A DNA stretch of 48,781 nt, counting the filler, from Jimgerdemannia flammicorona (taxonomy: Eukaryota): NCBI GenBank assembly GCA_003990765.1. It is 2 parts of 2 records of this genome, joined end to end, with 100 filler letters (N's around TTAATTAATTAA, not from the genome) between each part and the next. Parts side by side here need not be neighbours in the genome. Positions count along the whole stretch, not along the records: positions 1 to 24,343 come from RBNJ01000986.1; 1 more part is not named here. One strand, given 5' to 3'. Under the pieces are notes generated by a model. That model did not search any database and was not told the origin of the DNA. It saw only the letters and a list, made by a program, of their open reading frames with translations. Position numbers and translations under genes: made by a program. Positions 1,964 to 40,093 of the stretch are shown here, piece after piece. How positions within the stretch are numbered: the first letter of the stretch is position 1; the number at the start of each line of letters is the position of its first letter.

Positions 1964-3100
1964 TTTTAAAGAGTATATATAAGAAAATATCAAGATATAT
2001 ATCTAGTATAGATAGCCTTTCAGAAAAGCTTAAAAAATATTTTACAAATTTTATTCATATTTTTATTTATTTTATTTTATTTTATTTTTTTATAGTTACT
2101 TAGATTTATTTATACCTTTATTATATATCTCTTATATATAATAGAAGATCTTTTTCTCTTTAAATTTCTTATTTATCTATTTATATATTTTTAATATAAA
2201 GTAAATATATTTTTTTATATTTCTCAATCTTTAATATTAGTCTTTTTTAAACTATATATATCAGATTTTTTAATTTTATTTTTATTTTCTTATAAATATT
2301 ATATATATTATTATTTAAGTAAACTATAATGATATTAAAGAAATTATAATTAAAAGAATATAGTTATTTTTAACAGATAGTTGTAGTTTATAAAAATTAA
2401 AAGAGATATTAGTTTGATAATTTATAAAAAAAAAAAAATATAGATAGTAAAATATGAAGTATTTTCTTTATAATTAATTTTTAATATTAAAATTTTATAA
2501 CTGAATCTTTTTTTAGTTTTATTTAAAAAGTTGTTTAGTAAAAGAAATACTATTAACATTACTATAAGTATATTTATTATATATATATATATTTGAGTAG
2601 AGTAATATTATAACAGTTGATCTAAATTAGAAATAATAATTAGAGAATAGATATTTGATTATATATAGTATCTAAATCTAATTCTCAATATAGTATAGTA
2701 TTATATGTAGTTTAGCAGTCACTCAATCTCTCAGTTATATAATTTATATAATTATATAAAAAGTATAGCTATGTGAATCTCTCAGATATAATGATCTCTC
2801 ATCTGTATAAATTTTATAAATATACTAATCTCTTAACTATCCCTTAGACTATAGATAAGATCATCTTTTAAATTCATTTAGCAGACAAATTAAGATTTGA
2901 AAAAAATGATTTTTTGAAATATTGTTTTTCTGTTATATCTCAATTTGTTTAAAAAAAAAATTTTTTTTTTTATAAAATTTTTATCAAAGATAGAATTATT
3001 ATATAAAAAATTATTGGTAATTTTTTTTTAAAAGCTATTATGATTTTAAAAGTTATAAACTTTTTAAATCTTACCTCTAAATATAGATGCAAAACAGTCA
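1850..3100. repeat. Extremely AT-rich, CpG-free degenerate repeat relic
   Basis: TA-rich, almost no CG dinucleotides, (TA)n and poly-A/T runs, no ORFs. Confidence 0.6.
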
Positions 3101-3671
3101 AAGAAATAAGAAATGACTTATAGAAAAAGAAGTCTTAACTTAGCTATTATATAATTAGTAAACTTATAAAATATCTCTAATATCTTAAGTAAATAAATCT
3201 CAGATTAAAATAGTTTAAGTAAAGAGATAAGAAACTAGTAAGTCTGTAGGTAAATATACTTTAGACTCAACTATCTGAGGACTCTGAGAAGTTAAAGAAG
3301 ATCAAGTATTTAAGATAAAAAAAATCTACTATACATACTTCTACTAATATATATCTACTACATTATAACTTAGTGCTCATTGGCTGGTAATTTAAGATAA
3401 ATATCTTACTTTTAAGCTGAATAACAAACAACTACTATCACTCAAATATATACTCAAATTGAACCAGAAAATTTAGACAAGATAGATATAAGACTACTAG
3501 TATTTCATAGATATATATATCTCTGATGAATCAATCATTATCTTCCTTGATAATTTCAAACAATATACTACTATAAAAACTCTATTAGTATAACAATAAG
3601 TAGCTCTAATGCTATTCAGTCTCTGAGAACTAGCAAGAATTACATTTATAGTAGTAACTCATACTGGAAAT
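3100..3671 (+). mobile_element. 5' (gag-proximal) part of degenerate Ty3/gypsy relic A, left of the insertion
   Basis: Same CpG-free, A-rich composition as 12852 onward. Joining the two flanks gives a seamless ...GGAAATGATAATA with AT (or AATG) duplicated. The start coordinate is approximate. Confidence 0.5.
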
Positions 3672-3713
3672 GTAGCTTTCCTTCCAGGCAGGCTACGCAG
3701 TTATCTGGTTCCA
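3672..3713 (+). repeat. 42-bp terminal direct repeat, left copy
   Basis: GTAGCTTTCCTTCCAGGCAGGCTACGCAGTTATCTGGTTCCA, identical to 12810-12851. Confidence 0.97.
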
Positions 3714-4206
3714 TCTGGTCTCTGTTCCTTTTGGCTGTTACGACCATTTCCACCGATCCTTCTTGTTCGTTCCGGAAGTAGAGGGACTTGTCTCCCCGGA
3801 TCACCATTATTTCTTTTGGCCTTAGGTTGTCCATTACGGCCTTGGCTCCGAAGATGAGCGGTTTCGGAAGGACGTCCGGGATCCTTTCTTCTTCCTGTAG
3901 TATTGGGATTCCTCCGTTTACTACTACCCTGGGTTGTTGAAGGGTTTTTCGAACGGCGCTTGTTGCTTTATGCTCCATTGTGTGACTGCGTGTTGAGAAA
4001 TCGTGGTGGATATTGATGTTACCGAAGCGGGCGGTGAGCATATTTATATTCGTTGTTGTGGACCACGTGTTTGTCTGGTGATCCTTCTTCCACATTGAGT
4101 CTTGTATTTCGTCGATTTCCCTTATCAGGTCCGTTACACTGCCGATCGTTTCCTGGTTTTGGAGTTCTTCGCCGATCTCTGCTTCGATCGCGGTTATTTC
4201 TTTCAT
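3672..4206 (-). CDS. N-terminal part of element ORF2 (164 aa plus MEPDNCVACLEGKL), cut by the linearisation point
   Basis: ORF 3646..4206 ends ...RDQMEPDNCVACLEGKL and then runs into flank sequence. The same peptide starts ORF 11563..12852. Its ATG lies 7 nt after the pol-frame TGA at 4214-4216. Confidence 0.85.
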
Positions 4207-4213
4207 GGCAATT

Positions 4214-6760
4214 TCATTTCTCTTTGGCTCCTTCCTTGGCTGCCCGGAAGAAAGTATTCCACCATATTTCTGTTTCCACTTGGTCTACGGCTCCTTTCCA
4301 TGGATTCTCTGGTTGGTGGTTTTCTTTGTCGCTGTCCGATTCTTCGTTATGGACTTGTCCTTTGAATTGCTTCTGGACGCCTTCTCGTCCGTATTATTCT
4401 TCAGACATGAACGTTATCGATGTGTTTGGTGTCCACGTAGGATCTTCTTCCTGTTGTGGGTACCAGGCGGGTTCGTTCCTTGAGCTACTTGGAATCGTTG
4501 TTTCCCATCTTTGAACGTCTTGCTGCCATTCTTGTAGTGGGTTTTTGTTCCTTGATCCTTCCCATGGTCTGGGTTCTTCATTCCAGCTATTTACCATAGC
4601 TTCCTTCTTTTCTTCCCATTCTTGCCATTCTTTTGGTCCGCGGCCGTCTTTGATCGGTTTCTTTCCGTAGGGTTTTGGCCATTTTGGGAGGGTTTGTTTT
4701 TCGTAACCTCCTCTTCTTGCTATCGCTTCTTGCTGCTTGTGCTCGCTTCCTATCTGGAGGAATTCTTTCGAGGTTCCTTGTTCTTCGCAGAGCTTATTCC
4801 GCATTTTTTCGAATGGGGAATTATCTGATCGCCAGTGCGTTCCGATGTGGTGTCGCTCTTTTTCTCCACCTTTTTGTTTGCTCATTTCTTCGTTCTTCTG
4901 GCGGCGCCATTCTTGATGAGCTTCGAGGGCTTCGAATTCTCGGTTTCTTTCGGCGATTCTTTCCCTGGCCTCTTGCACTTCTTTTGGCGTCGGCGGGTAA
5001 TATGTATCGCTATCTTGGTCCGAGTCGTATTCGTTGGCTGGCCAGAGGAGTTCTTGTTGCTGGTTATCCATGCTGATGATGTTGATACTGACTTCTTGTG
5101 TTAGCTCGTTGTCCTTTATATCTTTTGGAAAGGGATCAGGTCTCCCCCCCAGGGCAACAGCCCCAGCGCGTGATAGGTAGTCTGAGAATCCGTTCTCAGA
5201 TCCCTTAATCCATTTGAACGACACATTAAGTCCTTGTAGGAAGAAGATCATCCTTCTTTCTGCCCCTGTTGGTGGTTCCGTGGAGGCCTTGCTTAGGTAT
5301 GTGTCTGGATTTGTTACCTTTGTAAGCGCTTGGTTGTCAGTGTAGATTATAACCTCCTGATTGGTCATCCAGGGGTTGGTCACCAGTGCATAATATACGG
5401 CGTATAGCTCCGCCTTTTGTTGGTTGAACAGTTCTGGCTGTTCTTTTGCCCTTTTGAACTGAACCAATTTTGGTAGGTTTCGGCTTCCTAGTCCGAGTAG
5501 TCTTGGTGGTGTGGTGGCTTGGTAGATTATCCATCCTACGCCATACGGGGATGCATCCGTATTGACTCGTATTGGTTCTCCTTTTTCCTGTAGCTCCAGT
5601 GTTGCGTGGTTGACGAGGGCTCGTTTGATCTTTTCGAAGGCTACGCATTGTTCATTTTTCCAAAGCTCTTCCAGCTTTCCTTTCTTGTTGACGATGTTAT
5701 TCTTGCATTCCATTAGTGGCGCGATTGTCTTCGTATAGTTCGGGATATAGTGGGCGAAATATCCGAATTTTCCGATGATGGCTTGAAGGTCTTCCACCTT
5801 GGCTGGTTTCGGTAGTCCTAGTAGCGACTGGACCCTTCCTGGGTCAATGTGGATGCCCTGCGTTGTCACCCTGGATCCCAGCAGTGATATTTCCTTCTGT
5901 CTTAGTGCCATTTTCTTTGGTGCGAGCTTGATGCAATGTTTTCGACATATTTTGAGGAATTCTTCCAGTGAGTAGTCGTGTTGTTGAACGGTTTTTCCGC
6001 CTCCTGCGGTGTCGTCAATGTACGATGGTGCTATCAGTTTCTTCAGCACCAACGGCTCGAATGCGTACTTCATGAATCCTTGCCATGCCCGAGGTGCGTT
6101 GTGGATGCCAAACAACATTCTCGAGGGTCTTAAGTATCTTCCGTTAAATGTCCTAACTACAAGAAGGTTCGCATGATGTGGTTCGACTGCGATATGGTGG
6201 AACGCCTTGGTCACATCTGCTTGCCAAATGTACCCTCCTTGTGAAATCTCCAAGAGTGCTTTTTGAACTTCTTGGCTTGTAGGCATTTCAAACGGTATAA
6301 GCTCCGTGCTTTGGTTGTATCCTCGATAGTCGATCACCCATCGGGGCTTGGCTTCTTTTTCCTGAGTTTCCCCTGTGGTTAACTCATCGTGCCCGCTGAA
6401 TACTAGGAACTCCTGTGCGGCCGCGAATGATTGCTGTACTTCTTCGAACCACCCGGCTTTGATCATTTCGTCATGTTCTAGTATTCTTGCTTTATAGTGT
6501 TCTTCGTGTTGCGGATTTCTTTGTGGTAACCTACCCGGGCAGTGGTAGGGTTTTCCGCCGATCTTCAGTCTTGCGATATAGGGGGGCGTTGTCGTGATGG
6601 TTTGGATGTCTTTGATGTCGTTTGCAAATACGTCCTTGTACTGGCATAGTATCTTTTCTAATTGTTTGTCTGGTGGCTTCTTTGCGAACTTGCTTAGGAA
6701 CATTTCGTCGCTCATTTGTTCGCATGATGAGCGACTTACTGAAAACTCGGCTTGAACGTC
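4214..6760 (-). CDS. pol: Reverse transcriptase-RNase H (Ty3/gypsy-caulimovirid type) with a charged C-terminal extension and no integrase
   Basis: RT motifs RWVIDYRGYN, DVTKAFHHI, MLFGIHNAP, YIDD (6011-6022), LLG. RNase H motifs TDAS, ELYAV, TDNQAL, ENGFSDYLSR. A TAA at 4394-4396 is followed by about 59 more sense codons to TGA 4214. No HHCC or DDE motif. Confidence 0.93.
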
Positions 6761-8300
6761 AGGTGCTGGTACAGGCCGGGTTCCCTGCTGGGGATTTGTT
6801 CCCAGTTTCTTCGATATTGTTCCTTGTCTTTCTCCACTGTGGTTTCCTTCGTGGGGTATTCGGTTCGTAGGGTCGCTTCTCGTTCTTGTGCGACTTGGTC
6901 TCCTACTTCTTCCACCTCAAACTTTGACTTGCTTTGTCGGTGCCATGGTTTGGCCTCCGGGGCGCGGAACTTGATTCCTGTTCGCCCTTTTTCTGGGGTT
7001 ATTACTTCCAGGCGGTTTTCGACGAAGTCAATGCTTCCGATGATTACTAGTGCCATTTTGTTGCTTCGGTCAACTTCTCCGTTGTTGAGTCTGAGCTTCC
7101 ATCCTTCAATCCCTTTTAGCGCAATCTTCTTCCAGCTGGCTCCTGTTAGTGCTGTTCCGACGGTTGTTTTGCTAGCAGCTAGGTTTATGGTTATCAGGCA
7201 GTTCTGTCCTGAACCATCTTGCTTGCGCAGTCTTCCGTCCCAGTACAATCCTTCTTTGTCTGGGTTGCCGTGTGCCATAGCCACTTGTCCCCATGGGTTG
7301 TTTCCTCGTAACGCTATGTTTCGTGGTGTGGCTGGTAGTGGAGGTGCAGCACGTTGGTAACTTGCTGGTAATTGTGTCTGTCTTCCTGCAGACGTCTGGG
7401 CCTTCCTGCGGGTTTCTACCGGCTGAAGGTCTTGCTCCTCTTCTAACGGTTGTACTTCGACTGGGATATTCCAGCATCCCTTGTCGTTGTCGTGCTCCCA
7501 ATATTCTCCTATTGGGGTAAGAGAGAGCTGTTCTCCTAGGTTCTGGCATTGGTATCCTGCCTTGGGCCTGGGAGAGGTCCTGTAATCGTGTTCCTTTCCC
7601 TTGTGTTCTTGAATTTTTGCTCTATCTTCTGCGAAGTTTGCCGGGATTTCAACTCCCTTTCGTAGGATTTTTCTTTCGCTGTAGAGGATGTCCCACCCGT
7701 TTTCTTGTAGGAATCTGTTGCCTAGTAGGAACGATGCGCTTCCTGCTCCTTTTAGTACTGTTAAGTTTATCTGGTAGTTCTGTTCCCCTACCTTAAATTT
7801 AACTTGGTGGATTCTTCCTACTACTCCTATCGGGGTTCCTCCAGCTCCTAGGAATCTTCTGTATTCTGGCTTTAGCTGATCCTTGAGTTGTAATCTCTCC
7901 AGGATTTCTTCGCTTATCACATTTTCATCGGCGGCGGTGTCGACTTTGGCTCTGAATACTTCCTGGTTTCGCTTAAGGGTCACCCATATTTGACCTATGG
8001 GGCCTGTTGCTGTGCGTTTTCCCAGTAGGTCGATCTCCGGTGCTTGCTCGATGACTTCAAGGTAGTTGTCTGATTGGTATTCCCAATCTTCGTCGCTTGA
8101 AGGTTCGTTTATCTCGTGGATTTCTTCACCTAGACGTTCTTCTTCTCCTTCGCTGTCGACTTCGATTTCATATGTTCTTTTTCCTACGCGTTTTGTTCTT
8201 CCTGTCCTGAAGAACCTTCGCTTTCTTCCGAAGGAGACCTTTCGTGTACCTTTCTTGTGGAACGGTTTATCTTCCTGAGGGTCGTCCACGTCCATTGGTC
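6736..8300 (-). CDS. Gag C-terminus, retropepsin-like aspartic protease and spacer domain
   Basis: PMDVD motif, an R/K-rich tract, AKVDTAADENVIS (DTA at 7933-7941), flap GAGG and FLLGNRFL, all in ORF 6736..8550. Confidence 0.85.
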
Positions 8301-9286
8301 TTCGTCCTCCTTTATCTCGCCAAATGCTTCCACCGGCATTTCTTGTACTTCTTCTGCTGCTGGTCCGGATTTTTGGTATCTTGTTCTGGCCCAGTAGCTT
8401 CTGTTGTAATTCGTTCGGATGGTACCTTCTTGTACTGCTGCAACGAATTTTCCTTTGAAGATGTTTAAGCAGACATCTAGAACTTGTGCTGCTGTTGTTG
8501 CTGGTGTTGTTGTGAGCATTTGGTTTTGTCGGTAATGATATGGTAACCATTCCGGCATTTTTCCTAAGATAAACTTTTCTTGCGTTGTAAAGGTGTCTTT
8601 TGTTAAGTCCGCGATCCTCATTCGAAGCTCCAGTTGCGTGTTGAAATGCTGCATCTCGTGGATGCTTTGTGCGTTGGACCTTGGGAAGTTATAGAGTTCT
8701 TCCCTTATGATTGTGATTTGTTCTGCTCCGAAGAACTTCTCGTATATTAGGAGTCTTAGTCCTTTTCGTGTTCCTACGGCGTCTGTGTAGGTCATCCAGC
8801 TTAATGGTTTTTCGTGGTCTGCCATATTTTTGCTGAGAACGTCGTTTACGAGCCATGCTCTTGGAACCTGGAACCGACCGCTGCTACTAGTCTGTAGCTG
8901 TATGATTTTGCTGGGTCGTCTTTGTTTTTCGGATCTGCCCAGTATCCGACTAGGTATCCTGCAGCTAGGTATGCGAGGTCCACTTGTCCCACAAATGCTG
9001 GGACTTCCATTGGATTTCCGGTGAACGGTTTTATGTTGTCGAAGATTTTTATGCTTCCCGGAAGCGTCATGTTGACTGGTCCTTCGATGTCTACCGGTGT
9101 GTCGTCTGGTGGTGGTTCATGCGGAGGATGTTGTGGGTTCTTTTTATGATCATCCTCATCCTCGAAGTTCGAGAATATTGCTCCTGCAATCTTCTCCTTT
9201 TGCTGCTGGTTTAGTGCCGCCCATGAGCTTTTGTTGACATTTGGTAGGAATGCTCCTACGAAGTTTATGGAATCTCGGGGCGTCAT
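8184..9286 (-). CDS. gag: Retrotransposon-type capsid (Gag) domain, split by a frame break near 8860
   Basis: IKPFTGNPMEVPAFVGQVD (ORF 8846..9391) continues in the -1 frame as RAWLVN...LIYEKFFG...REELYNF...SIHEMQHFNTQL...KFILGKMP (ORF 8184..8825). This matches the general Ty3-type capsid pattern. Confidence 0.7.
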
Positions 9287-11185
9287 GTTTGTAGTCGTTG
9301 TAGAATTGTTGTGATGGGTTGTACTGTGGTGTTGGTCTCGACTGTCTCCTTCTTCTGATGCCGAAGGCAATGTCGTACATGCTCCATCCATACTGTTGAG
9401 CCCAATCGCTTCCTGGTAGGTCTCCTGTTTCCCAGTCGTTTGGGAAGTTTGGAATTCCTCCTATTCCATGGTCCTTCTGATAACAGGACATTGTGGCGAT
9501 TATGATGTCCAGAATCCTCATGTACATGTCGTCTCTTGGGTAGTTTTTTCCACCATTTGGTGAGTCTACTGAGTCTGAGGCTTGCCATGATAGGGATGCT
9601 TGGAGAAATGTTACTGTTTCTCCTCCGTTGTCGGGGTCATCCCATTGCCATTGGATTCTGGGTTCCTGCCTTCTCGGACTTGGAGATCTTAGTCTTGTGT
9701 TTCGGTTGTTTGGTGGTCTTGGGGGTTCTCCTCCAGCTCCTACTGCCGTTCTTCTTGGTTGTGGTGGTGTTGTTCTGGTCAACCTTGCTAGGATCCTTTC
9801 AGCTTCGCTTGCCGTGTCTCTTGTCCCTTCAACTCTTCTGAGCAGTTCTTCATTTTCTAGTCTCGCTCTTTCTCTGCTTGCTTGGAGTTGTTGCGCGGCG
9901 TTATTATCCAGTCTTTGCCTGACTCTTCCTACTGGAAGTGCGTTTCTTTGTGTTTCTTCCGTTACTGGTGCAAACGGGTTTGGCTGAATCCGCGATGCTC
10001 TGGGTGTTTCTTGCATTATTTCTTCCCATGGATTTGCCTGTCGGTTTGTTACTGTTGCAACATTCGTTCTCAGTGGTTGCCTTCTGGTTTCTTCCAGTGC
10101 TGATCTAATTTGTTGCGCTGTTCTGGCAATTATTCCAGGGTTTGCCGCTTTTCTTTGCCCTAATCTTGCTGTTGCTGCGATTATATCTTCCGCCGTTGTT
10201 ATTCTGTTTCTCCCTATTTCCTGCAGTTCTTCTACTGCTTGGGAGTTTGGTGAGAGCATTCTTGGTATAGCTGTCACCGTGGATGATCCTGATTCTTGTG
10301 GTCTGGGCCCGGCGGGAGGTTGTATTTTGAAGTAGATTTCTGGTACTTCTTCTGCTCCAGTCCATTCGCCGTTTGTTTTCTTTAGCCATGCTGTCAGTCT
10401 GTTTGCTTGTGATATTCTTTCCTTTGGCCAGTCGAATTTTCCGAGTATGTATTCGAAAATTTTTATCTGTAGGGAGGTCGCTGATCCTCCTCCGGCTGCC
10501 GATATTGCGTGTATTATTCTTAACGGTATCTCCTTGAAGTGCCCTCCTAGTTGGTTTGCTACGAAGATGGCGTAGTCATATTTGATGGGCGGCCTTCTTT
10601 TGACTATTGTTTTCACCTTTGCATATCCTTCCGAGAGGAAGTCTGATACTTCTTCGGGGATATCTTCGAACTTGTTGTTTCCTTCTTCGAAGGACTTTCT
10701 CCAGAACGACGTCCATCTTGATGTTCCGACCATGTGTCTGGTCCTAAGCGTGGTCTCGCTTGGGGCATCTACCGTTTCTCCATCTGACTGATGTGTTGGT
10801 ATTGGTTCTCCATGGATCGTGTCTTCTGCTTCTTGTAGTCGGGTTCTTGTAAGCTCCGGCTCTGGTGGTTCCATTGGGCTGACTGGTTCTGAGGTATTAA
10901 ACCAGTCTTCCATCTCCGGTTGCTGGTATGTTGCTACCTCGATCCTTGGCCTTCTTCCCGAGTGGGTGGTCATACTTTCTGACCTCTTTGAACGTTGGGA
11001 GCGTTCTTCTCGGCTGCTTCGGCGGCTTCTGACTTCTTCCTCAAGCTCTTGGATCCGAGCTTGTTGTTGGCGGACTAGGCGTTCCATCCGCTGGTCGGTA
11101 TTTCGTCCGTCCTGCTGACGGGTTCAGGGCTGGCATTGGTTTCGTCATTAACAATGCTTTGGATGATTCTTCCAACTTGCGACAT
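9156..11185 (-). CDS. Large N-terminal ORF of the element, function unknown (coiled coils, R/P/Q-rich)
   Basis: 643-aa ORF 9156..11087. A likely true start ATG at 11185 (AAAAATG, MSQVGRIIQS) is in another frame and overlaps it. Confidence 0.7.
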
Positions 11186-11278
11186 TTTTCTTTTACTTGT
11201 TGAGTAAACCTTTGATCCTCCGGACCGATTCAATTCAGTATCTAGCGGCTAGGCCAGGGGTAAGTCTTATGCTTCCAC

Positions 11279-11567
11279 TGAAAATTGACTCTTGAAGTCT
11301 CGAGGCTAAGCTTTAAGTACACCGGTCAACGTGTGCGCGAAGCAGCTGCGTAGGTAGTGTAGCGTAAAAGCTATTGTGGGGTTTATTGGGTTTGTAAAAG
11401 GGTGTGGAATTCGAGTTCCAATACACCTGTATTTATACATTTGTTTCGACCTCTTGGTCCTGACTATTTGCAAGAGATATTGACAAATTTCGTCGATTCC
11501 TTCTTTGCAGCACATTTTGCCTTGTGACTTTCTTTTCGCCTAGTTATTCGGCGAAATGACCGTCACA
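11279..11567 (-). promoter_or_regulatory. Single LTR-like control region (U3-R-U5-like)
   Basis: On the minus strand, in order: purine tract GGGGAAGTGGGGAA (11585-11572), TGTGAC (11567), TATAAATA (11437-11430), hairpin GGTGT-ATT-GGAA..TTCC-ACACC (11427-11401), AATAAA (11387-11382), ...TTTTCA (11279), then G-TGG (candidate PBS, 11277). It is the only long non-coding stretch of the element. Confidence 0.7.
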
Positions 11568-12851
11568 TTGATTCCCCACTTCCCCAGATACTTGATCCCC
11601 ATTCTGCCGGATCATCTGGGCTTACCAAAATCGCTTGTTGTTCTTCTTCGGATGGTACTCCTCCGGTTCCTTGGATCAGGAGATTCCAGTAGAGCTCTTG
11701 TTCTCCGATTAGTTTTCTTAGGATTGGGATATCGTGAGCTGCTATCCTTGTGATCATGCTTGCCGTTAGTCCTTTGACTTGACTGATGAATTCTTCTCCC
11801 ATTCCTTCCAGGAGTCGGTGGCATGACTTGATTTTGGCCTTGATCCAATCCTTCTGCGTTTTGGTCATCTTTTCTTTCTTGACTTCCTCGATTTGTCTGG
11901 AGACCTTCTTCATGATTTCCTTCATTGCGAACATTCCGGCGCTTTCTTCGTTTTCCCCGTTACTCTGGAAGTCCGTTTTCTTGTTTTGCCAGATCTTTCC
12001 TAGTTCCAAGAAGCATTTGATTGCGCTGACGCTTGTTTCGTCTGCTCTTTTTTCGAAGTTTAGTGCCCTCATTACTAGGTAGGCTTCTTGATCAGCAAAT
12101 TCTCCGTTTGCTAGGTCTTGCGTCGTGATTTCTAACCATCCTGCGGCGTGCCATACTCGGATATTTTTGAAGCAGTTCAGGACTCTTACTGCACTTGTTC
12201 CTAGCTTTGCTTCTGTGGCCAGTAGTTCCTCCATGCTCGGTAGTTCTTCTACCATATTCCCTATGGTTACCGGTGTTTCTTGGATTTCTACCGGCTGCGG
12301 TTGCAGTTGCTCTTCAATTTCCTCGTTTGTCCAGATTCTTACTTCAGGGATTTCTTCCGGTTCTTCCTCGCTGTCGATATCTGCATCGCTAGCGACCGGT
12401 TGTGCTCGTAGGTTTCTTGAGATCCTTCTTGCTCTGGTTCTTCGTGCTCCGACTGCTCGTCGTATTTCCCTTAGCTCGTTGACTTGGTTTTGGAGATTTT
12501 GCGCCAGTTCCGCATCTTCCCTTGCTTCTCTTTCCAAGTCGTTGTAGCTGTTTTGAATCATTACTGCGTTCCATTCCAACGTTTTGATTCTTGCTTCCAT
12601 GTGGGCTAACATCGCTTCCTTGGGTATCTCCATTACCGGTTCGTAGCAGTATAGGCATACTCCTCCGATGGTTTCCTCGATCGGGAGTCGGATGCTATTG
12701 TGTTCTTCTTCCCCGATTTTGCGTTTCTTGTGATTTGCATATATCATACCTAGGCACCTGGTATGGATACTTTTGTCGCAATGTGGGCAGTTGAAGAGTG
12801 AGTCTTCCGGTAGCTTTCCTTCCAGGCAGGCTACGCAGTTATCTGGTTCCA
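11563..12851 (-). CDS. C-terminal 429 aa of element ORF2: PHD-type (C4HC3) zinc finger, coiled coil, acidic linker and helical domain
   Basis: CVAC-x12-CPHC-x4-H-x2-C-x32-CLYC. No ATG remains at this end (TTG at 12852 arises from the flank). The frame is continuous with 4206->3715 on circularisation. Confidence 0.85.
12810..12851 (+). repeat. 42-bp terminal direct repeat, right copy
   Basis: Identical to 3672-3713. Confidence 0.97.
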
Positions 12852-15800
12852 ATGATAATACTATAATACTAGTAGTACAGAAGACCTGATTGCAAACTAT
12901 CTACTATATAGATAAAATCAAGCAGATCCTGAAGGATTAACTCAATAATATCTATCAAGAAATGAATAAAGACCCAAATATCTTTTATATCTGAATCTAC
13001 TATTAGATAATTTTGACTAATTATACTAATGTTATCAAAAATCAAGTAACTAAAACAATCTTTATAAAAGGAATTCATCTAGAGATAGTTATGGTAATTT
13101 AATCAATACTAATAGTTCTAAACTTAATATAGAAGGTAACTTATGCTCAGTGATATTAGATAGTCAGATATCCTCAAGACTATATAATAGAGAGAGTTAC
13201 AAAAGTCAGAATTGAAGTATTTAAAGTAACTAGTATAATTTCTACAACTATAATCAATTAAAATACATCTTAACTAAAGACTACAGAGTAATAGAGAAAT
13301 AGTGATCCTATAGAGAAACTTGTTAAGAAGTTTGCTAAAATAACTACTTATCTGAGAAATATAATAAAGGAAATCAGAAAAAGAGATTGTTGTCCAGTTC
13401 AGAAGTTTGCTACTACTATAGACAAGAAGAGAGAAATCTACTATATATATAGAGAAGAAGGTCACTACTCTTATAAAAATATAAGTGAGACTAAGTGTAA
13501 GGTCCAGCTAAGTAATACTATATATCAGAAATTGTAAATAGATCAATACTATTACTTTTAAAGAGATTGGAGATTCAAAAAAAGAAGAAAAATAGAAAGC
13601 TTATTCAGCCCTCATCTTTAAAAAGAATGTCTACCAGAAACCCTATAAGAGGCCACCAGGAAGATCTAAGAAGAAAGTAGTAGAACAGTCTGTGAAAAAA
13701 TAAATAGAAGTATCTATAAAAATTAAAATCATAGCTGAGAAAATAGATCAAGATATAGAGCTTAAATAAGCAGTTAAAGATCATCTAAGGCAATACTTCT
13801 ATCAGTAAAGAGAAAAAGAAGAAAAAGCTACAAAAGAGTAAAATCTTTAAGTATAATATCTTCAAGGATTTTAGCTAGTAAAAAGTCAATATAATCTTTA
13901 AATAGTTAGTAGAAATTTCTATCTTCAGATAATAAAAGAGACTGAGACTTACAGAAACAGTTAAGAATCAAGAGTAGAAGATAGTTGAGACTAATAATAT
14001 ATAGAATAATTCAGATAAAGAAAGTGAAAAAAATAACTACAAGATCTCTATCTATCTATCTATCAGATTGAAGATAGGATCTTTGAAGCTATCATTGATA
14101 TAAGAGCAGAAGAATGCTTTCTCAGTAAAAAAGCTATAGATTGTCTAGATTGGAAAATTGAAGCTATGAAATTAGTATTCATTACAGTAGATGATACAAG
14201 AGCTACCTCTCTAAGAAAGATTCGGGATATCTCTATTAAGTTTAAAGGAGCAATTATTCTAGTAAATATGATTATTATAAATACTATTAATTATAACATC
14301 CTCATTGATAATCAGTAGCTTCATAATGCTAAGATTATAATTGACATAAACTCCCAGAAGATACAGATTATCTATTAAGGACAAAAGATGTAAATTCTCA
14401 TCAATATCAATAAAGAAGTACTCTCTGAAATAGAGAAAGAAGACAGTAAGCAAGAAGAAGCCTATATGATAACTACTTAAAAGAAAAAGAAGAAGATTGG
14501 ATAGATTAGTAAAAAAGATTGATTACTAAAGAATATACTCTATTAGGAGTATATCTTTATAAAATTCAAATATACTATATGAAGTATATAGATGAGTACT
14601 ATTAATATATTACTAAGATCTATAAGATTCTTTATAAGAAGAAGAAAAGAAGACAGAAGTAGTAAGAAAAGGAAGATCAGAAGAATGAACTACCAGCCCT
14701 CCTAGAGGATAGTGATAATAAAGAATAAATCAAGATCAAGATTTATTTCTATATAGTTCTATTAGAATATAAGTCAGAAAATATAGGAATAGATATTACT
14801 ATTCCCAAGAACTATATTGAAATACTCAAGATAAGAAATAGCCTAGCTAAAAGGAAATTTTTTATTAAAGGAGAAGTTATTAATTCTGATTATATTAGAG
14901 AAATCTTACTTATTACTAGAAACCACAACTCTACAATTCTATTTACAGTTAAGAAGAAAGACTGATTTATATAAATGCTGATTTTTTTAATACTATAACT
15001 CAGGATTTTGGAAGTCAAGAAGCTGGAGGAAATGGAAAGAGAAAGGAGAGGATTTGGATCTACAAAAAGAGAAGTTTTTGACAGTACTAAAATTACTAAA
15101 TTAGATCACAAAAAGGATAAAATCACAGTCAAGTATAGCTATACTATTAGAAATAAATTTCTATTCAAAAAAAAACTCAAGAAGTTACTATATGAATTTG
15201 AGAATATTCTTGCTACTGATTTTAAGAATATCAAAGAAAAGACACCATACTATTATTATGATATAGATATAGAAGATACTGAGCCAATCTATCAAAGAAT
15301 AAGACCAATTCTACTAGTATATTATAAATAGCTCAGAGGAAATCAAGCAGATAGAAGAAGCTAATATCATTAAGGAGACTATTAGTTCTTAGTTATTACT
15401 AATCATACTAGTTTCAAAAAAAGAAAGCAAGCTAGGAGAATTTACTTCAAAGCTCTATACAGACTATAGAAAACTGAATGAAGTTATTAAGAAGAATTAC
15501 TAATTACTATCTCTTATTAGTGATATTCTAGTGATATTAAAAGATAAAGCATAATATTACACCATCTTAGATTTATACTCAGGATTCTATCAAATTAGCC
15601 TTATTAGAGAAGTTAGCAAAAAGCAGCCTTCATTATCTCAGATAGAACTTATGTCTATTTATGAATACTATTTAGAATATATAATTCCCAGTAAGTTTCT
15701 AGAGAATAATAAACAAGATTATCTATAATAAGATAACTAAGAAATATCTAAACTATATTTATTGAATCCTACAGAAACTAAAAGATCATGATCTGTTCAT

Positions 15801-18300
15801 CAAGCCAAAAAAGTATAAGTTCAGCAAAATTGAGATCTTCTACCTTGAGCATATCATTAATTAAAATAGAACTCACACAGACCATATTAAGATTCAAGTA
15901 GTTGAAGTCTCTCTAAGACTTACTATAGTTATTAAAACTCAAGCCTTTATAGGACTTACTACTTATTATATATAGAAGATTTATTAAAGAGTTCTGGTCT
16001 CATTTATGAATTATTCAAGAAAGATACTAAGTTCTAATAGACTGATAGATAATAATAAGTATTTAAATATCTCATGGTTTATTTGACTCAGATACTCATC
16101 TTAAGAAGATCTGACTGGTCTTAAGAATTTATTCTATAGACAGATACAAGCTCAATTAGACTAGAAGTTATTTTTATAAAAAAAAAAAATAAGATCAAAT
16201 ATATGATTATATATCTCAGCTAAAGAACTCATAGAGAAGAAAGAGAATATAAATTCTACAAGCTAAAGTATCTCACAATTATCTAGACTATAAAAAATTT
16301 TCACTACTATCTTACTAGAAGATACTTCACTATTCTAACTAATTACCCAGCTCTTATCTAGTTATTGACCACTAGTCAACTTAAAGAAATATTTATCAAA
16401 TAGATTATAAAACTATAAGCCTATAATGCAACTGTCATATATTACTTAGGAAGAAATAATATTAATATAGATATACTCTCACAGATATTCTAAAATGAAT
16501 AAGAAATTTTACTATAGAATTATTATCTATTTTTTTTTTTTTTCTTTTAAAGTCACTTGGACTTCCATTTATTACTACTCAATCTATAAATAATACAACA
16601 TATATACCCACAATCCCTCAGCCAATGCCCCTCAGATCCCTCTCTCTACTTGTTATTTTTTTCTGCTGAAGGATAATTCAGTCACCTACCACCTGAACTC
16701 TCCTGCCACTCTTCTTACAAATACAATTTACTAGATTCTGATGGCCCCCCCTATCTGGTCCCCACCCTCTCCACTATCCATTCAAAATGTCTAGTATTAA
16801 CCATTCTCAATGTGCTATCTTAGCTTCAATTGCAATCTGCCAGCCCTTTTCAAAGACATAAAGTCAATGACTGACCATCTCTATCCAAATTGCCAGGGTC
16901 TATCCTAAGGTCAATCATTTATCTCCCACTCTACCCACTAATCTTTGCCTGAGGTCTTCCCATCTCCCTCCTTCCCCACCCATAGAATTATCATCTATCT
17001 GAGACAGTAAATGATCTGAAAGAATGAATATAAACAATTATTAATAGAAGCTGAAAATAATTTGAAACTGATAGAGAAATACTAAAGAAAGAAAAACTAC
17101 TAGTTATATCAAAGTATAAGAAGAAATAAGTAATGAAATTAGTATATAAACTTGGCTATCTAAGAGGAATAAATATCTATAATAAAACAAGAAGAATAAT
17201 GTGATGGTCTAAAATAGAAGAAGATATCAAATAATTTATCAAGATCTATAATAAATATTAGAAACAGAAGTAAGATTAGTGAAACCAGATACCAGAATTA
17301 GTAGATATAGAATCAGTACTATTTGATCACATTATAATAGATATAATTAGCCTACTACTCTTAATATTGACTAGTAACTAATATATTATTATCATTATAG
17401 ACCTCTTTATGAAATAAATAGAAGTAAGATCTCTCAAAGAAGTCAATATACAGTTAATTGCTAATTTTGTTTATAGAGAAATCATCTGTCAATTTAAGAC
17501 TCCAAAGTAAGTAACAATAGATAGAAGAATAGAATTTATAAACTAGCTCTTTGAAGTTTTATATGAGAAGTATAAGATTTAGTATATTTAAACTACAGCC
17601 TATTATTTACAGAGAAATGAACAGACTAAAAGAACTAATAAGATACTTAAAAATATTATTACTAAGATCTGTAATAACTATAAAAATTAGGACTATTATC
17701 TATCAATAGTATTATCTACTCTTTAGGATATATAATTATAAAGTATCTATTTTATCTCTTAAAAATTGTTATTTAGAGAAAAAAGTTCTAAAAAAACTCT
17801 ACTATCTAATAGAGATACAATATAGAAATATTTAGATACTGAGATATAGAGATTGTACCAATAAGAAAGAGGGCTAATGATTATATAATCAAGCAATAGA
17901 ATAATATATAGAAAATATATAAGTTTCTAGAGATTATCAAGATAAGAGATAAAGTTTTAATATATTAGAGTATACATAGTAGAAGCTTTATAGTCATAAA
18001 AACTAAAGCTCAATTAAGAAAGATCTCATATTATACAAAATATAAAAGAAACTACTTTTAACTATGAAAACTAATAGGTACAATTATCCTCACTACTATT
18101 TACTAAAACTGACTTAAGAAGTACTATAGCTAATCAATAAAGTACTGCTCTAGCCCTCAAGATTATAAGTATTACTTAGTAAACTATAAAAAGACAATAA
18201 TATTCTACTAAGCTATCAGTTATAGAGGAATTCTTTAAAATATCAAAGTATTATATAGACTCATCTATTATGAACTTTATACTTTAGAGTCTACTAATAT
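12852..18300 (+). mobile_element. Degenerate Ty3/gypsy relic A (gag-PR-dUTPase-RT-RNaseH-integrase)
   Basis: Transition-decayed motifs. PR: AIIDIRAEECFLS (~14090). dUTPase: GEVINSDY..RGFGST (14870-15063). RT: LDLYSGFYQI (~15570). RNase H: TDTSS (~16140). Integrase: IDLFMK*IE, TIDRRIEF, TAYYLQRNEQTKRTN (17400-17650). The end coordinate is approximate. Confidence 0.85.
16531..16981 (-). mobile_element. 5'-truncated LINE 3' end with poly(A) and 17-bp TSD, nested in relic A
   Basis: Poly-T followed by AGTCACTTGGACTTCCATTTATTAC, resembling AGTCGCTTGGACTGCCCTTTATTAC at ~24137. Flanked by ATAGAATTATTATCTAT (16514-16530) and ATAGAATTATCATCTAT (16982-16998). Confidence 0.85.
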
Positions 18301-18835: not shown

Positions 18836-21800
18836 TCTCTCTCTCTTTAAGAACCAATGTCCTTATTGAGTTCTTAGGTAGCATAAGACTAGATATACTT
18901 AACCAAAATTTCTCAAACTTGTATTAGTATATTGGTGGGAATTGGCCATCCTTGTATAGGACAGAGGGCCTATTATCAGACTAATCAACTGGAAGTAGTT
19001 TGAACTCAGCTAGTAGCTTCATTTTAGTAGACTTCTTATTCATTAAATATTCTGCTAGTTCCAGGGTCTCAAAGTAAACTTCCAATATATAAGGCATTGA
19101 TCATTACTATAGATTGTCAATAATCTAAGGAAGTCACTACAGAGATTGGGTAATGTATTTTGCCTTAAAGTCTTAAACTAGATCTTGAGAGTTCTTGAGG
19201 TTGACCAGTGGTTCCCAGGTAGTATTATATTTAGGGTAACCCATCTACTTGACTAGGTATTCAGGACAGTGGTAGCAGATTTATTTGTCAAGAATTTTCT
19301 CAGCTTCATACTCAATATGATCTTCAATAATCACAGAGATAGAGGGCTTAGAAATTTGACTAAGGTAGGGCAGTAACTAGTTCCAGGTCTTGAGATGTGA
19401 TATATAAAAGACCAGGTATACTCTCATGGTTTCAGATAGCTTAAGACAGTAGAAGAATGCAGAGACTTATTCAGTAATATTGAAAGGTCTAATATACTTA
19501 GATTGAAACTTGTTCAAAAGATGGTTGACTTGAGATTGTATCTTGAGGTTCTCAGTAGACAGTAGGACTTGATCTCTAATAATGTAAGTGACATTACAGT
19601 GATTCTTATTAATATACTTAACTTGATGCTATTGAGCCTTCTGAAGATTTATGGTAGCAATCTTGAGTAGTTTGTCTATTTTATCTGTAAAGTTCTTAGT
19701 GGTTGAGACTTATATTTGACTGCTTTTCTTGAAAGAGAATAGACTTATAGGGGTCTTGGAATCTTGACCATAGAGTAATTGGAAAGGGAAAGACCAGTAG
19801 ATAATTAGATAGTATTGTTGTATATAAACTTCACATAAATCAGGTAGTAGTTCCAATTATCTTGCTCATAAGAAATATAGTTTCTAAGCATTTATTCTAG
19901 AGTTCTGTTCATGTGCTCAGTTTGTCCATCAGTTTGTGGGTGAAAGGTGATAGACATAGCCAATTGGGTTCCCAGAGTCTTGAAGAGAGTTTGTCAGAAG
20001 TAACTGGTGAACTTGAGGTCATAATTGCTGACAATTACTCATGATAGGCCATAGTGATAGAAGATGGACTTAAAGAAGATTCTTGCAATCTCAGATGTAG
20101 TAGCATTGGTAGTAGTTGATTCAGTAACCATAGTCTTGGTCAGGTGGTCAATGAATATGATGATAGCATTAGTATCAGATTGAGTTTGTAGTAGTTGAGT
20201 TATAAAGTCTATGGTAACTTGCTCAAATTTTTTAAGAGGAATTGATAGTAGTTATAGTAAACTAGCTAGTGCTTAGATGGTAGACTTGTTATGCTGACAT
20301 AGATCATAGCTGGCAATATAGTTCTTGATTTCCTTGACCATACTTAGCCAATAGTAGTGATATTGAATGTTCTTAATAGTCTTCTTAATTTCCAGATAAC
20401 TGGTAAGAGGGAAGTCATAGTGTTCTTATAAAACCTTGTAGTATAGATTTATATTTTCAGATAGATAAACTTGATCTTGATGATAGATCAGATTGTTCTC
20501 AACAGTATATATCCTTGAGCTTTGTTCAAGAAAACTCTAGTGGTAACTATGTTTTCTTTATAAGCTTGTCTGATTTGGTCTAAGAATTCTGATGCCAAGG
20601 TAACCTGTATGATTGTGGTGAGGTCTAGGCATCTTGATAAGACATTTGGTATAATAAGTATCTTGCTAGGCTTGTAGATGATTGTTGGGTTGAAGGTTTG
20701 AAGCTTGAGACTCTACTTGGCTTATAGATGTGATAGAGTAGGTTGGGTGTTAATATACTTAAGAGATTGATGATCAGTGATAACATCAAACTCAATATCT
20801 TCTAAATAGCATTACTAGTAGTCTAGTGTATGTATTATTTCCAGTAGTTTCTTCTCATAAGTGGCTAGCTTTTATTTAGCTAGGGTCAACTTGTGGGACT
20901 CAAAAGCAATAGGATGATGTTTTTTGCCATCACTTTGTGATAGGACTGCTCCAATGGCAAAATTCAATACATCAGTAGTGACTATAAATTTTAAGCCTTA
21001 ATCTGCATTATACAGAACTAGAGTATAGATCAGACAGTTTTTGAGTTCTTGAAAGGCTTGTTGACAGAAGAGGTCCCAGGTATAGAATACATAGTAGTCT
21101 GAGTGTAGGTTCTTCCTTATGAGGTTAGTCAGTGGCTTAATAATGCCAGAGAAGTTTCTGATAAAGTAGCAGTAGTAGTCAGCTAGACCAAGGAAGGATC
21201 AGAGTTCTGTGAGATTTGACAGAATAAGCTATTCTTTAATTGCTTCTATCTTGTATGAATCTACTTGAATTCCTTGTCCAGAGACAATATAGCCAAGGTA
21301 TTCAACTTGTTTCTTGAAGAATTCACACTTCTTGAGCTTAGTATAAAGCTTGTGTTTTCACAGGATCTCCAGGACTATTCAAATGTATTTGAGATATTCT
21401 TTTTTAGTTGCACTAAAGATCCGGATATCATCAAGATATACCAACAGAAAAATAAATAATTGGTCCTTGAATATCTTATTCATCAGAGTCTGAAATATGG
21501 CAGATGTATTGGTGAGATCAAATACTAAGACCAGGAATTCATAGAGTCCAAAGGGGATTATAAATGCAGTCTTGGGAATGTCTTCTGGCTTGATTCAAAT
21601 TTGGTGATATCCTGACATAAGATCTAACTTAGTGAAGTACTTGGCATTCTTATGAGTATCAAAGATTTGATCAATTAAGAGTAGTGAATAGCAGTTCTTA
21701 ACAATGAGTTTATTGAGTACATAGTAGTATATATATATTTGCAAGATGCTATCCTTCTTCTTGATAAATAAGACTGGTGAGCCATAAGGAGATTTGCTTG

Positions 21801-21990
21801 GCTGAATGGCTCCTCATATAAGTAGTTCTTCTAGTTCTTTCTTGACTACTTCAATTTTAAGTAGTGATATGTAGTACATATGTTTCTTAGGTAGTACAGC
21901 TCCTGGAGTCAGTTTGATTTTATGATCAACTTCTCATATAGGTGGTAGATCAGGTAGCTTGTCTAGAAAGACATCCTTGAATTCTTCTAT
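18836..21990 (-). mobile_element. Degenerate chromovirus (Ty3/gypsy) pol: RT-RNaseH-integrase-chromodomain, 5'-truncated
   Basis: SPYGSPVLFIKKKD (~21780), LVYLDDI (~21430), FHPQTDGQTE (~19930), chromodomain EYEAEKILDK..EYLVK*MGYP..TWEP..NL (19200-19315). PPT-like AAAGAGAGAGAGA followed by TGTAAT at 18835. Confidence 0.9.
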
Positions 21991-22029
21991 AGTGTACAGT
22001 ACCTTAAATCAACCATATGTTATACAAAA

Positions 22030-24092: not shown

Positions 24093-24137
<45 letters not shown>

Positions 24138-24343
24138 GTCGCTTGGACTGCCCTTTATTACCGATCTATTCTATATAGTTACAATGATCCCACCCCCTAT
24201 CCAATCCCCCTAGGGGGTCCCTCCCCCCCTACCCCTTCCCTGTTAAAGACCACTCTGTCGAACACTATCCCCACCCTCCCACCACTCTGCTCACAGATCT
24301 TCAACACTAAACCTCGACGTCGTCCTCCCTGAGGTCCCCAACC

Positions 24344-24443
24344 NNNNNNNNNNNNNNNNNNNNNNNNNNNNNNNNNNNNNNNNNNNNTTAATTAATTAAN
24401 NNNNNNNNNNNNNNNNNNNNNNNNNNNNNNNNNNNNNNNNNNN
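24344..24443. other. Artificial 100-nt gap spacer (N44-TTAATTAATTAA-N44)
   Basis: A six-frame stop linker centred in Ns. Confidence 0.95.
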
Positions 24444-27400
24444 CTCAACCTTCTCCTGCTCTAGCACTACCCAATTACCCACTACCCGAATCCTCCCACC
24501 ACTCTTCCGAGATATACACTGCACCAGACCCCTGTGGTTCCCCCCACCCAGACCCCAGCCTCGCCACCAGCTATTCAAAATATCCAACAGCAGCCATTCC
24601 CAATGGGCCACCTTGTCACCAACCCCAACCTAATGCCCTTCTTCAAAGACATGAAACCCGTGCCCAGCCAATCCAACCCACATAGCCAAAGCCCAACTGA
24701 GGGTCAGCCATTCATCCCCAACCCCACCCACCAGTCTCTGGCGAAGTTCACCCCATCTCCCCCCTCCCTCTCCCTCTATAGCACCCAGCCCCATACGGTC
24801 TCCAATATATCTCCAGAACTCCTCCAAAACCTCACATTCACTAAGCCAATGTTCAGGTGTTTGCACCACTCCCTCCTCCTGACCAATGTTAAAACAATTC
24901 TCATACTTAAACACCCCACCGGCCACCAAGTGTCCTGACCGATAGTTCAACATCACATTCTGCTGCAGGACCCGCCACCACACCACCCAGAACTTGGGGG
25001 GCAGCCACTGCCTCACCCATTTACTCCAATGCCAAAGGCCATTCCAATCCCACTCCTCACCAATTCCAACCCTCTGCCAGGCTTCTGGCCACAGGTCTCC
25101 ACCTAGGCCTCGCAGACACTCCAGACCCTCGCCAAGCTGAAAGCTCTCCACCAGAATGCCACCCAGCAGAAGCCTGTCCCACCTCCACATCTGCAGGCCC
25201 CAAACCTCCTCAGCTTCATCACCTTGCCACCGAAGTCCAATTTTCTTAGCACCATCTACCACCCCCCACCAAAAGCCCATAAACCGCATCCTCCTGCTCC
25301 CCTCCATGGCCACCATTGCGAGCAAGTCACCGGAACCACCACGTAGGGAGTACCGAACCTCCCACAAACATTGCATGAGTGGCACCCACTCTCGACCCTG
25401 AAGCTCGCTCACCCTTCACAGCCACCAGGCTCTCAGACAAAGAAGCTGCTTAGTAAAGTCCACTAAGCCCAGTCCACCTCTCTCCAAGGGCAGTGTGAGC
25501 ACCTCCCAACCAACCTAGCTTCACTGCCCACCCCAGATCCATGACCTCGCCATCTTCAACAGCCTCTTGACCACCCAGGTTGGGAAATCCAAGTGATACC
25601 CAACATACCACAGCTTCGGCATCCAGTACACATTCAACACCATCACCCTTGCTAGGGACATATTCCGGCCTTCCCAATGCAGCAAAACATTACCCCACTC
25701 TAGAAGCTTATGGTCCCACCATGCCCAGGGAAGAAGAGATCCAAACACCGAGAAGTAGATCCCCAGGTAATGCACCGGTTCACCAGCCGGTACCACTGTC
25801 CCAATGACGTCGTCATCAACAATTCCAGTACCCAGCACCAGTGTCTTGCATTTGTACTAGTTTAGCTTAGCACCTGAACCCCTCTCATACCATTCCACAG
25901 TCCTCTGCAGCTCTCCCACATCCACCAAGGAGTCCAGCCCAACCACCATATCATCAGCAAAGGCCCCCACCTTCCAGTTAACCCCCAAATTGTCCAAACC
26001 TCCAATCTGACACCGAATTCTGTCCAGTAGTGACTTGAGGGAAAAGGCATACAAAATGGCCAACAAGAGATCCCCTTGAGGTACCCCATGTCCCAGGGGA
26101 AAGGTCACCCCCCTGTGGCTATTGACAACCAATACCGCCTGACTATCCTCCAAGAGGCTGATCAATGATCCTCGGAACCCCAGAGGGATACCAATCTGTT
26201 TCAGCACACCCTCCAGTCATATCCTCTGCACTCCATCATAAGCCTTCTCTTGGTCCAGAAACACCAATCTGCCATCCACCCCTGCTGCCCAGGCGCCTTC
26301 AATCACTCTATGAACCCAGGCTGTCCCATCTCAAATCAACCGACCACCAACAAACCCATACTGTTCCACACCAAGCACCTGCTGAGCTATTCCTTACAGC
26401 CTCATCACCAAAATTTTCATCACCAGTTTGCGGTCCATGTCAAGGAGCATAATTGGCCACCAGTTCTTCCAGTCCTCTCTTCTTCCCTTATTCTTATAGA
26501 GCAAGGAGACTAGCCCTAAGCACTGTCCCCCAATCCAAGCACCAGACCAAAGAACTCCATCACACATAGCAGTCATTTCCTCCAGCACCTCGCCCACCCC
26601 AGCCATCTTCTGCCAAAAATCCCAGGGAAGTCCATCCTCTCCCGGGGGTGTCCCCTTGCTTGTTGAGGCCACAACCCTGCAGATCTCCTTGCTACTCACT
26701 GGGTTCCCCAATGCCCCAAGTCCCATCGCAGGGTTCAGATACTAATCTCCCAGCTGCCTTTCAACATCAATAGCATCCAATCCTCCTTCCTCCTCACTCC
26801 AAAGATTCCCTCACCAGGTTTGCAATAGGCCTAGAATTGCCGGAGTCTCCACCATCAACTTGCCATCTGCATCCAAAACTCTTTCCCACCACTGCCTTGT
26901 CCGTCTTGCTTGTAACAACCTTGACAGGAACCTGGTAGGCCTCTCTCCCTCCTCAAGCCCCTGCCACCGCAGGTGGGCCACCATTCCCTGCAACTGCTCC
27001 TCCTCCTCCCTTCATAGCACCCCTTTAAGTTCCTCCACCTCCTGCCGGATCCTCACAATATGCCAATCAGTCACTTCCCCATCCTTCAGCACACCTGCCC
27101 ATCTTTCCATGAGTGCTGCCAAATGCCGTGAGGCCCACCCCACCTGCCACCTTCACTGGGTACATTTTTCTTTCCCAGCTTCCCTCCAATACCTCTGAGC
27201 ATTCGCCTTCAGCTGTCTCCAGTGGTCCCCAATCTCCAGTCCTTGTTCCCGCCACCTGCCGATATTACCCACCACCTCTGCTTCCCAACCCTCCCACAAT
27301 ACCCTATCCTCCAACAAGGAAGAATTTAGCTGCCAATGTCCAGGCCCATCCTCATTTCCCCCAAACCTCCCCCCTCCAAGGATCCCCCAGTAATCAGACC

Positions 27401-28070: not shown

Positions 28071-28143
28071 ATTGAAGAAATATTTCAACAAAGACCCCAA
28101 TCTATAATTCCATACTCATCTCATCTCCCACCAGATCCAAGCA

Positions 28144-29994: not shown

Positions 29995-30029
29995 ACCAGT
30001 TCAATCATTGCCATCTATGTTGCTAGTCG

Positions 30030-39971: not shown

Positions 39972-40093
39972 AAAACTTGCCCATATAGGGCTATCCACTC
40001 AGGAAGATAGTGTCATCCTTGTGCAGGGGCCATGCTAATCTTCTCTATATCGTTCCAATTTTTTCAAGTGTCAGCGGTCCCGAAGGACTTGAC
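39972..40093 (-). ncRNA. U6: U6 snRNA copy (variant or retrocopy) flanked by a 15-bp direct repeat
   Basis: Minus strand reads GTCCTTCGGGAC...AAAATTGGAACGATATAGAGAAGATTAGCATGGCCCCTGCACAAGGATGACAC...GTTTT. CGTTGTCACATTAAT occurs at both 39957-39971 and 40093-40107. Confidence 0.9.

Follow-up and report, generated by a model that had tools for sequence, protein, structure and literature searches.

An integrase-less, LTR-less retroelement with a split gene and a 42-bp terminal redundancy in the fungus Jimgerdemannia flammicorona

Background

How does a reverse-transcribing element with neither LTRs nor an integrase come to lie in a fungal genome with one of its genes cut in two, one half at each of its ends? 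The question is raised by a 9,180-bp insert in Jimgerdemannia flammicorona (assembly GCA_003990765.1), found at positions 3672-12851 of the 48,781-nucleotide stretch of DNA analysed here (hereafter the window, to which all coordinates refer). The classification of reverse-transcribing elements turns largely on the way in which their DNA goes back into the chromosome or remains outside it. An earlier note on this DNA had described a 42-bp exact redundancy between the two ends, and a reading frame of 593 amino acids that is restored when the ends are joined, and had inferred from them a donor molecule that was either a circle or a head-to-tail concatemer. Here we examine the insert, its gene content, its relatives and its junctions, and weigh the explanations that can be offered for its structure.

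Results and discussion

The ends of the insert

The insert is sharply delimited by base composition, with 47.3% GC between 3672 and 12851 against 25.6% and 25.0% in the 500-bp flanks, and the outer edge of each repeat copy coincides with an abrupt GC boundary. The outermost bases of the insert are the two copies of the repeat, 3672-3713 on the left (the 3' end of the insert in sense orientation, where the repeat encodes the first CxxC of a zinc finger in the gene that we call ORF2) and 12810-12851 on the right (the 5' end). They are identical over all 42 bp, with not one further base matching on either side. In a blastn search of the window against itself they form a 42-nt pair (100% identity, E 1.5e-14) that is the sole repeat touching the insert; the redundancy described by the earlier note is thus borne out both by direct comparison and by self-alignment. 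By the same self-alignment there are no LTRs at the insert. The pair is absent from the 20 direct-repeat families listed out of 27 in the window, most of which are low-complexity A/T runs. Measured from start to start, the copies are spaced by 9,138 bp, which gives the unit length, the insert being one unit plus 42 bp. No target-site duplication is seen, the bases adjoining the insert (GGAAAT in the left flank, ATGATA in the right) being different.

A gene split between the two ends

The two reading frames that run into the ends of the insert, both on the minus strand, are listed as separate genes at 3646-4206 and 11563-12852; they are two halves of one gene. The 5' part (ORF2-left, 3646-4206) comprises 186 codons as listed, of which 164 are unique, 14 lie in the repeat and the last eight, with the stop codon, belong to the host flank (3646-3671); upstream, its frame remains open to 4284. 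The 3' part (ORF2-right, 11563-12852) has 429 codons and encodes a PHD/RING-like zinc finger, a long coiled coil and a helical C-terminal part. Its first methionine is residue 36, with no start codon of its own before that, so that ORF2-right is a 5'-truncated fragment. Translation of one unit joined head to tail in silico, begun at the ATG at 4206, passes through 593 codons before the first stop, exactly as had been claimed (164 + 429). The terminal peptides given for the two halves in the earlier note are likewise as written, except for the bracketed initial methionine of the right half: the codon is a TTG straddling the boundary between host and insert, a start by bacterial rules only.

ORF2 sits after the RNase H, in the position that integrase or env takes in relatives. 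Its best cluster match for the right half is a RING-type cluster from Mucoromycota, with a score (0.83) below the usable level, and the structure predicted for that half from a four-row alignment (pLDDT 46, too low for a fold search) is confident only for a helix at residues 78-149. As integrated, the copy can make neither an intact ORF2 nor a full-length RNA from the internal promoter-like region discussed below; recovery of either would need a second tandem unit or recombination between the 42-bp copies, by which, as the earlier note suggested, the circle might be regenerated.

Gene content

All long frames of the insert are on the minus strand. Read in sense from 12851, their order is ORF2-right, a 475-nt gap, an ORF of 643 codons, two frames in the gag position, a protease ORF, an RT-RNase H ORF and ORF2-left. 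The 643-codon ORF (9156-11087, minus strand), the first after the intergenic region, is an orphan for which no family and no usable cluster match were found. In the gag/capsid position (8187-9460, minus strand) are two overlapping orphan frames, 8849-9460 and 8187-9116 from stop to stop, for neither of which a family was found; the structure predicted for the latter has a pLDDT of 34. The protease ORF (6736-8550, minus strand, 604 codons) encodes a retropepsin-type aspartic protease with the motif DTAAD, and the RT-RNase H ORF (4394-6715, minus strand, 773 codons) a reverse transcriptase with the motif YIDD and an RNase H of the Ty3/caulimovirus type (PF17917/PF17919). In a search of the PDB the polymerase is about equally distant from the Ty3 RT (4ol8, 3.9e-18), the foamy-virus Pol (7o0h, 8.8e-15) and an 'Enzymatic polyprotein' (8r0s, 9.6e-15).

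Every stop-to-stop frame of at least 60 aa on either strand of the insert, 63 in total, was compared with Pfam (E up to 0.05). The protease, RVT_1 and RNase H were the only clear matches, beside a weak PHD/C1 match in ORF2 and four sub-threshold matches that we take for chance. No integrase (rve), no methyltransferase and no tyrosine recombinase of the Phage_integrase type (distant forms of which could escape Pfam) is found in these 63 frames. Neither the 63 frames nor the orphan ORFs contain a recognisable gag/capsid family or a 30K-type movement protein, the latter sought at E up to 0.05 in the frames and up to 5 in the orphan ORFs. A regular-expression scan found no CCHC zinc knuckle in any minus-strand frame, those in the gag position included.

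From stop to stop, the frames form an overlapping chain (11123-9159, 9460-8849, 9116-8187, 8688-6739 and 6916-4397), followed by a short gap and then by 4284-3649. The succession of reading frames along the chain from 11123 to 4397 (2>1>2>0>1) could reflect frameshift decay instead of a compact live genome. The RT frame stops at 4394-4396 (minus strand), and a related protein described below (P0002) aligns onward in the same frame for about 57 residues, to 4223; the polymerase tail of the present copy seems to carry a premature stop.

The neighbourhood of the insert

The surroundings of the insert are AT-rich and rich in transposable elements. About 7 kb away on the same contig is a conventional Ty3/gypsy-like element with RT and integrase (19787-22005, minus strand), matched at 24-31% identity by a Ty3-like polyprotein (P0005) whose integrase part matches 19787-20419 only and has no match in the 3672-12851 insert. 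A Ty3/gypsy-like fragment lies at 15739-16047 (plus strand). The window itself consists of two assembly pieces joined artificially by a spacer at 24344-24443, made of 44 N, TTAATTAATTAA and 44 N, with stops in all frames. A stretch of LTR-like similarity (16530-16981 versus 24116-24774, 66-89% identity) spans this spacer, and the two pieces may therefore be true neighbours.

Beyond the spacer, a 7-kb block at 24500-31500 has 50-59% GC and a very strong excess of C over G (skew -0.35 to -0.60), and a minus-strand frame of 616 codons at 28144-29994, rich in Gly, Glu and Val, has no Pfam match. A full-length U6 spliceosomal RNA gene at 39981-40088 (minus strand, 75.9 bits) shows that the DNA is eukaryotic. 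A frame at 41410-42156 (plus strand) encodes a protein kinase domain from which the N-terminal third is missing (E 1e-24), and it probably belongs to a host kinase gene as one of its exons. Short tandem arrays occur at 36291-36362 (18-nt unit), 47017-47144 (unit of about 17-18 nt) and 48507-48677 (50-59 nt).

A single intergenic region, far from the ends

The sole intergenic region of the unit (11088-11562, minus strand) is a candidate for the promoter and poly(A) region of a genome-length RNA. A TATA box, TATAAATA, starts at 11437, and an AATAAA follows at 11387-11382, about 50 nt downstream in the sense direction; both are present as sequence signals, with a putative function. No second AATAAA occurs on the sense strand of 9,180 nt, in spite of an A content of 37.5%, against 8.0 +/- 2.7 in dinucleotide shuffles, of which 1 of 300 had so low a count; ATTAAA is absent from the sense strand, against 3.8 expected from the shuffles. 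Avoidance of poly(A) signals everywhere except after the TATA box is what a genome-length sense RNA would require, and LTRs and the intergenic regions of pararetroviruses are arranged in this way.

These signals lie about 1.4 kb inside the insert, far from its ends, which fall within the zinc-finger codons of ORF2. A provirus of the LTR type is colinear with its RNA, and from the distance between the promoter/poly(A)-like signals and the ends of the insert we infer that the present copy is circularly permuted relative to its likely RNA. About 110 nt past the AATAAA, at 11277-11264 (minus strand), is a TGG-initiated stretch preceded by ...CA that is a candidate primer-binding site; there is no tRNA gene in the window.

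The 42-bp repeat, which in sense begins with TGG and includes a 10-nt purine run, GGAAGGAAAG, was itself considered for several roles in reverse transcription. As the R region of the RNA it was rejected, the TATA box and AATAAA being elsewhere and no poly(A) tail being present at the 3672 end. As a primer-binding or plus-strand primer site it was rejected on geometry, since with a strand-displacement flap the redundancy would be expected on the opposite side of the site, and GGAAGGAAAG was discarded as a plus-strand primer signal, there being 38 purine runs of at least 10 nt across the element.

Relatives of the polymerase and of ORF2

The close relatives of the polymerase are three RT proteins of J. 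flammicorona itself (81%, 90% and 72% identity), and the next best of its 28 matches are Ty3-like polyproteins at 21-28% identity. Among the contigs searched, the RT alignment found no match in genome, metagenome or viral contigs; P0030, a protein introduced below, had none in metagenome or viral contigs, nor did the 643-codon ORF in viral contigs.

When ORF2-left was compared with longer proteins, one of 355 candidates matched, namely P0002, a gene model of 1,181 residues from J. flammicorona on a contig of 7,904 bp. The polymerase frame (6715-4223) is matched by its residues 1-816, residues 4-155 of ORF2-left by its residues 815-965 (74% identity) and residues 37-237 of ORF2-right by its residues 969-1177 (70% identity), with three residues between the two halves. 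The published model fuses RT with ORF2, and it misses about 45 residues around the ORF2 junction, which were called as an intron or are deleted in that copy. The order RT, ORF2-left, ORF2-right is impossible from a copy linearised as the present one is. The two halves of ORF2 would therefore be contiguous in the DNA of the P0002 copy, which would be either a differently permuted copy or a tandem.

A search of ORF2-right against 1.84 billion representatives gave two matches, P0029 and P0030, and a search against proteins of similar length gave none among 6,338 candidates at E up to 0.01. Residue 93 of P0030 (417 residues) aligns to residue 2 of ORF2-right (pairwise E 2e-15), the two proteins sharing the same finger pattern, which in P0030 is preceded by an N-terminal part of 92 residues. 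A member of the family thus has such a part ahead of the finger, and ORF2-right is a family protein that has been truncated N-terminally. The N-terminal part of P0030 shows no significant similarity to ORF2-left.

The junctions in public contigs

The junctions were sought in contigs from two public runs of two studies (X1 and X2, sharing 0.49 and 0.21 of the sampled words), aligned to 2600-13900 at 85% likeness; since X1 may be the source of the window itself, we count one independent study (X2). The left junction is bridged at the same base in both, by a 594-nt record of X1 (record 1, 3495-4088, no differences) and by a 200-nt record of X2 (record 9, 3574-3783, one difference and a 10-nt gap). 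On the right, no contig among the 16 pieces listed out of 64 crosses 12851/12852 directly, and the flank is joined to the insert by a joint from 12797 to 12912 (its sides 31 and 56 letters long), carried by a single contig of X1 and a single contig of X2. No joint leading back from the 3672 end to the 12851 end is listed in X1 or X2, contigs of this kind showing presence and not absence.

The 114-nt stretch skipped by this joint in both runs (12798-12911, plus strand) has the ends GTGAGT...TATAG and spans the right junction together with the right repeat copy. Two further skips with plus-strand GT..AG ends, 12076>12174 and 12238>12334, are found in X2, making three of 95-114 nt within 12076-12912. 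They look like introns of an RNA antisense to ORF2 and to the element, running into the right host flank, and they suggest that the material of X1 and X2, both labelled 'RNA?' by guess, may be RNA. The longest open frame of the spliced antisense form is 151 codons, and the antisense RNA is therefore probably non-coding.

Origin of the insert

In our judgement the insert is probably a reverse-transcribing element of an Endogonales-like fungus that has become endogenised, its DNA having been captured in the form of a 9,138-bp circle or of a head-to-tail multimer, as the earlier note had proposed. The proposal gains support from the gene order of P0002, the N-terminus of P0030, the internal position of the promoter/poly(A)-like signals and the junctions carried by contigs. 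The donor would have been linearised at an arbitrary point within the ORF2 zinc finger and joined to AT-rich host DNA with no target-site duplication, an accidental event that would be independent of any integrase. The simplest routes would be end joining, or repair of a break in which a circular template was copied through a little more than one turn. The redundancy could have arisen through such repair, through capture of a fragment slightly longer than one unit, or because a longer tandem array later collapsed by recombination to one unit and a fraction. The outcome is a copy of 1.0046 units in which ORF2 is present as two pieces, one truncated at its 3' end (4206-3672) and the other at its 5' end (12809-11563). 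A single RNA of the free genome would be initiated downstream of the TATA box near 11437, cover the 643-codon ORF, the frames in the gag position, the protease, RT-RNase H and ORF2, and terminate on reaching the AATAAA at 11387 for the second time, following the logic of a pararetrovirus. The relatives from which this reading is drawn are few and belong to one fungal species (the three RT proteins at 72-90% identity), so that the end points of the family as a whole may prove different from those seen here.

Three other explanations bear on the same evidence. The one nearest to the capture of a circle or multimer, and a variant of the head-to-tail donor rather than its opponent, holds that the locus is a tandem array of n + 0.0046 units, with n greater than 1, which formed when a concatemer integrated, or through amplification afterwards, and was collapsed to a single unit by short-read assembly. 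Assemblers usually pass through a cycle in their graph a single time, the order RT, ORF2-left, ORF2-right in P0002 fits an array as well as it fits a permuted copy, and the shortness of the P0002 contig is as expected of collapsed repeats. No result obtained here counts against an array at this locus, which we regard as rather unlikely. Distinctly less probable is that the 42 bp are fixed terminal repeats, a miniature LTR or a split direct repeat, of a transposon that circularises through them and expresses ORF2 only from circles or tandem copies. The repeat does start with TG in sense and contain the purine run, and retroelements of the DIRS/Ngaro type with a tyrosine recombinase rebuild a circle by way of their terminal repeats. 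However, the repeat lacks a terminal CA, no target duplication accompanies the insert, none of the 63 frames encodes an integrase or a tyrosine recombinase, and the purine run is unremarkable in so A-rich a strand; moreover, fixed ends would have to lie inside zinc-finger codons, with the TATA box and AATAAA 1.4 kb away.

The possibility that assembly created the structure, a free circle having been stitched into a host contig with the 42 bp as its k-mer overlap, can be given hardly any weight. Circular contigs are usually recognised by a few tens of redundant bases at their ends. The two repeat copies, however, lie in the interior of a contig of 24,343 bp, and contigs from two runs and two studies share the left junction base and link the insert to its right flank. 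An artefact of k-mer overlap at the ends of a circular contig is excluded on these grounds.

Comparison with known elements

The element that has been caught here as a permuted copy is a fungal retroelement that lacks both integrase and LTRs, and in its workings it appears closest to the endogenous pararetroviruses of plants. Caulimovirids have genomes of about 7-10 kb that encode protease and RT-RNase H, without integrase or LTRs, and that combine a single intergenic region, in which promoter and poly(A) signal are close, with a chain of abutting or overlapping ORFs; their integrated copies in plant genomes are permuted or longer than one unit and have no target duplications. The present element has the same protease and RT-RNase H, the same lack of integrase and LTRs, one intergenic region, abutting ORFs and a permuted copy of more than unit length. 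Of the features of the family, the element has a Pol that combines aspartic protease, RT and RNase H but lacks an integrase. A circular LTR-less genome would fit the lack of LTRs, the restoration of ORF2 by the join and the joined order in the paralogous P0002. The element differs from Caulimoviridae in its fungal host, in having no 30K movement protein or CCHC capsid knuckle that we could find, in an RT that by PDB E-values is not detectably closer to the caulimovirus enzyme than to that of Ty3 or of foamy virus, and in ORF2 and the 643-codon ORF, which have no counterpart there.

With Ty3/gypsy elements (Metaviridae) it shares the order protease-RT-RNase H, the type of RNase H (PF17917/PF17919), the Ty3 RT as best solved structure and, outside the genus, Ty3-like polyproteins as the best RT matches (21-28% identity), but it has no LTRs, no DDE integrase and no target duplication, and the copy is permuted with respect to its likely RNA. 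The DIRS, Ngaro and PAT elements are thought to pass through circular DNA, their terminal repeats making sense once the ends are joined. The same is true of the terminal repeat described here, which in contrast is 42 bp of coding sequence and not a structured split or inverted repeat, in an element that has a protease and in which no tyrosine recombinase or methyltransferase was found. Finally, the double-stranded linear DNA of hepadnaviruses is captured by end joining, with disruption of genes at its ends. Capture of DNA of the pararetrovirus type and disruption of a gene at the ends would be points of likeness, whereas the element differs in having a protease and an RT of the Ty3/caulimovirus type, and in the lack of a polymerase of the terminal-protein type.

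A full-text literature search, covering articles without their supplements, found no report of a pararetrovirus-like or an integrase-less Ty3-like element in fungi. Kuafuorterviruses, which do have an LTR and an integrase, were found in animals after a screen that included 2,772 fungal genomes among others (PMC11673190), and Caulimoviridae are treated as a plant family in PMC13308828.

Conclusion

A permuted copy longer than one unit, in an element without LTRs, integrase or recombinase, indicates a circular DNA stage, which in the literature searched is undescribed for a fungal lineage. The element would also be a second, independent example of the relation between LTR-type retroelements and pararetroviruses. 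A bolder reading, which we put forward tentatively and hold to be possible rather than likely, is that the insert is an endogenous copy from a true lineage of fungal pararetroviruses, with a circular, integrase-free genome of 9.1 kb, any replication of which would have been episomal, by way of a terminally redundant RNA from a single TATA/AATAAA region, and which reached chromosomes by accident. To our knowledge, replication in the style of pararetroviruses has so far been tied to plants (Caulimoviridae) and animals (hepadnavirus-like viruses). If this reading is true, it would also exist in early-diverging fungi, with an orphan zinc-finger/coiled-coil protein (ORF2) and a 643-codon ORF of its own.
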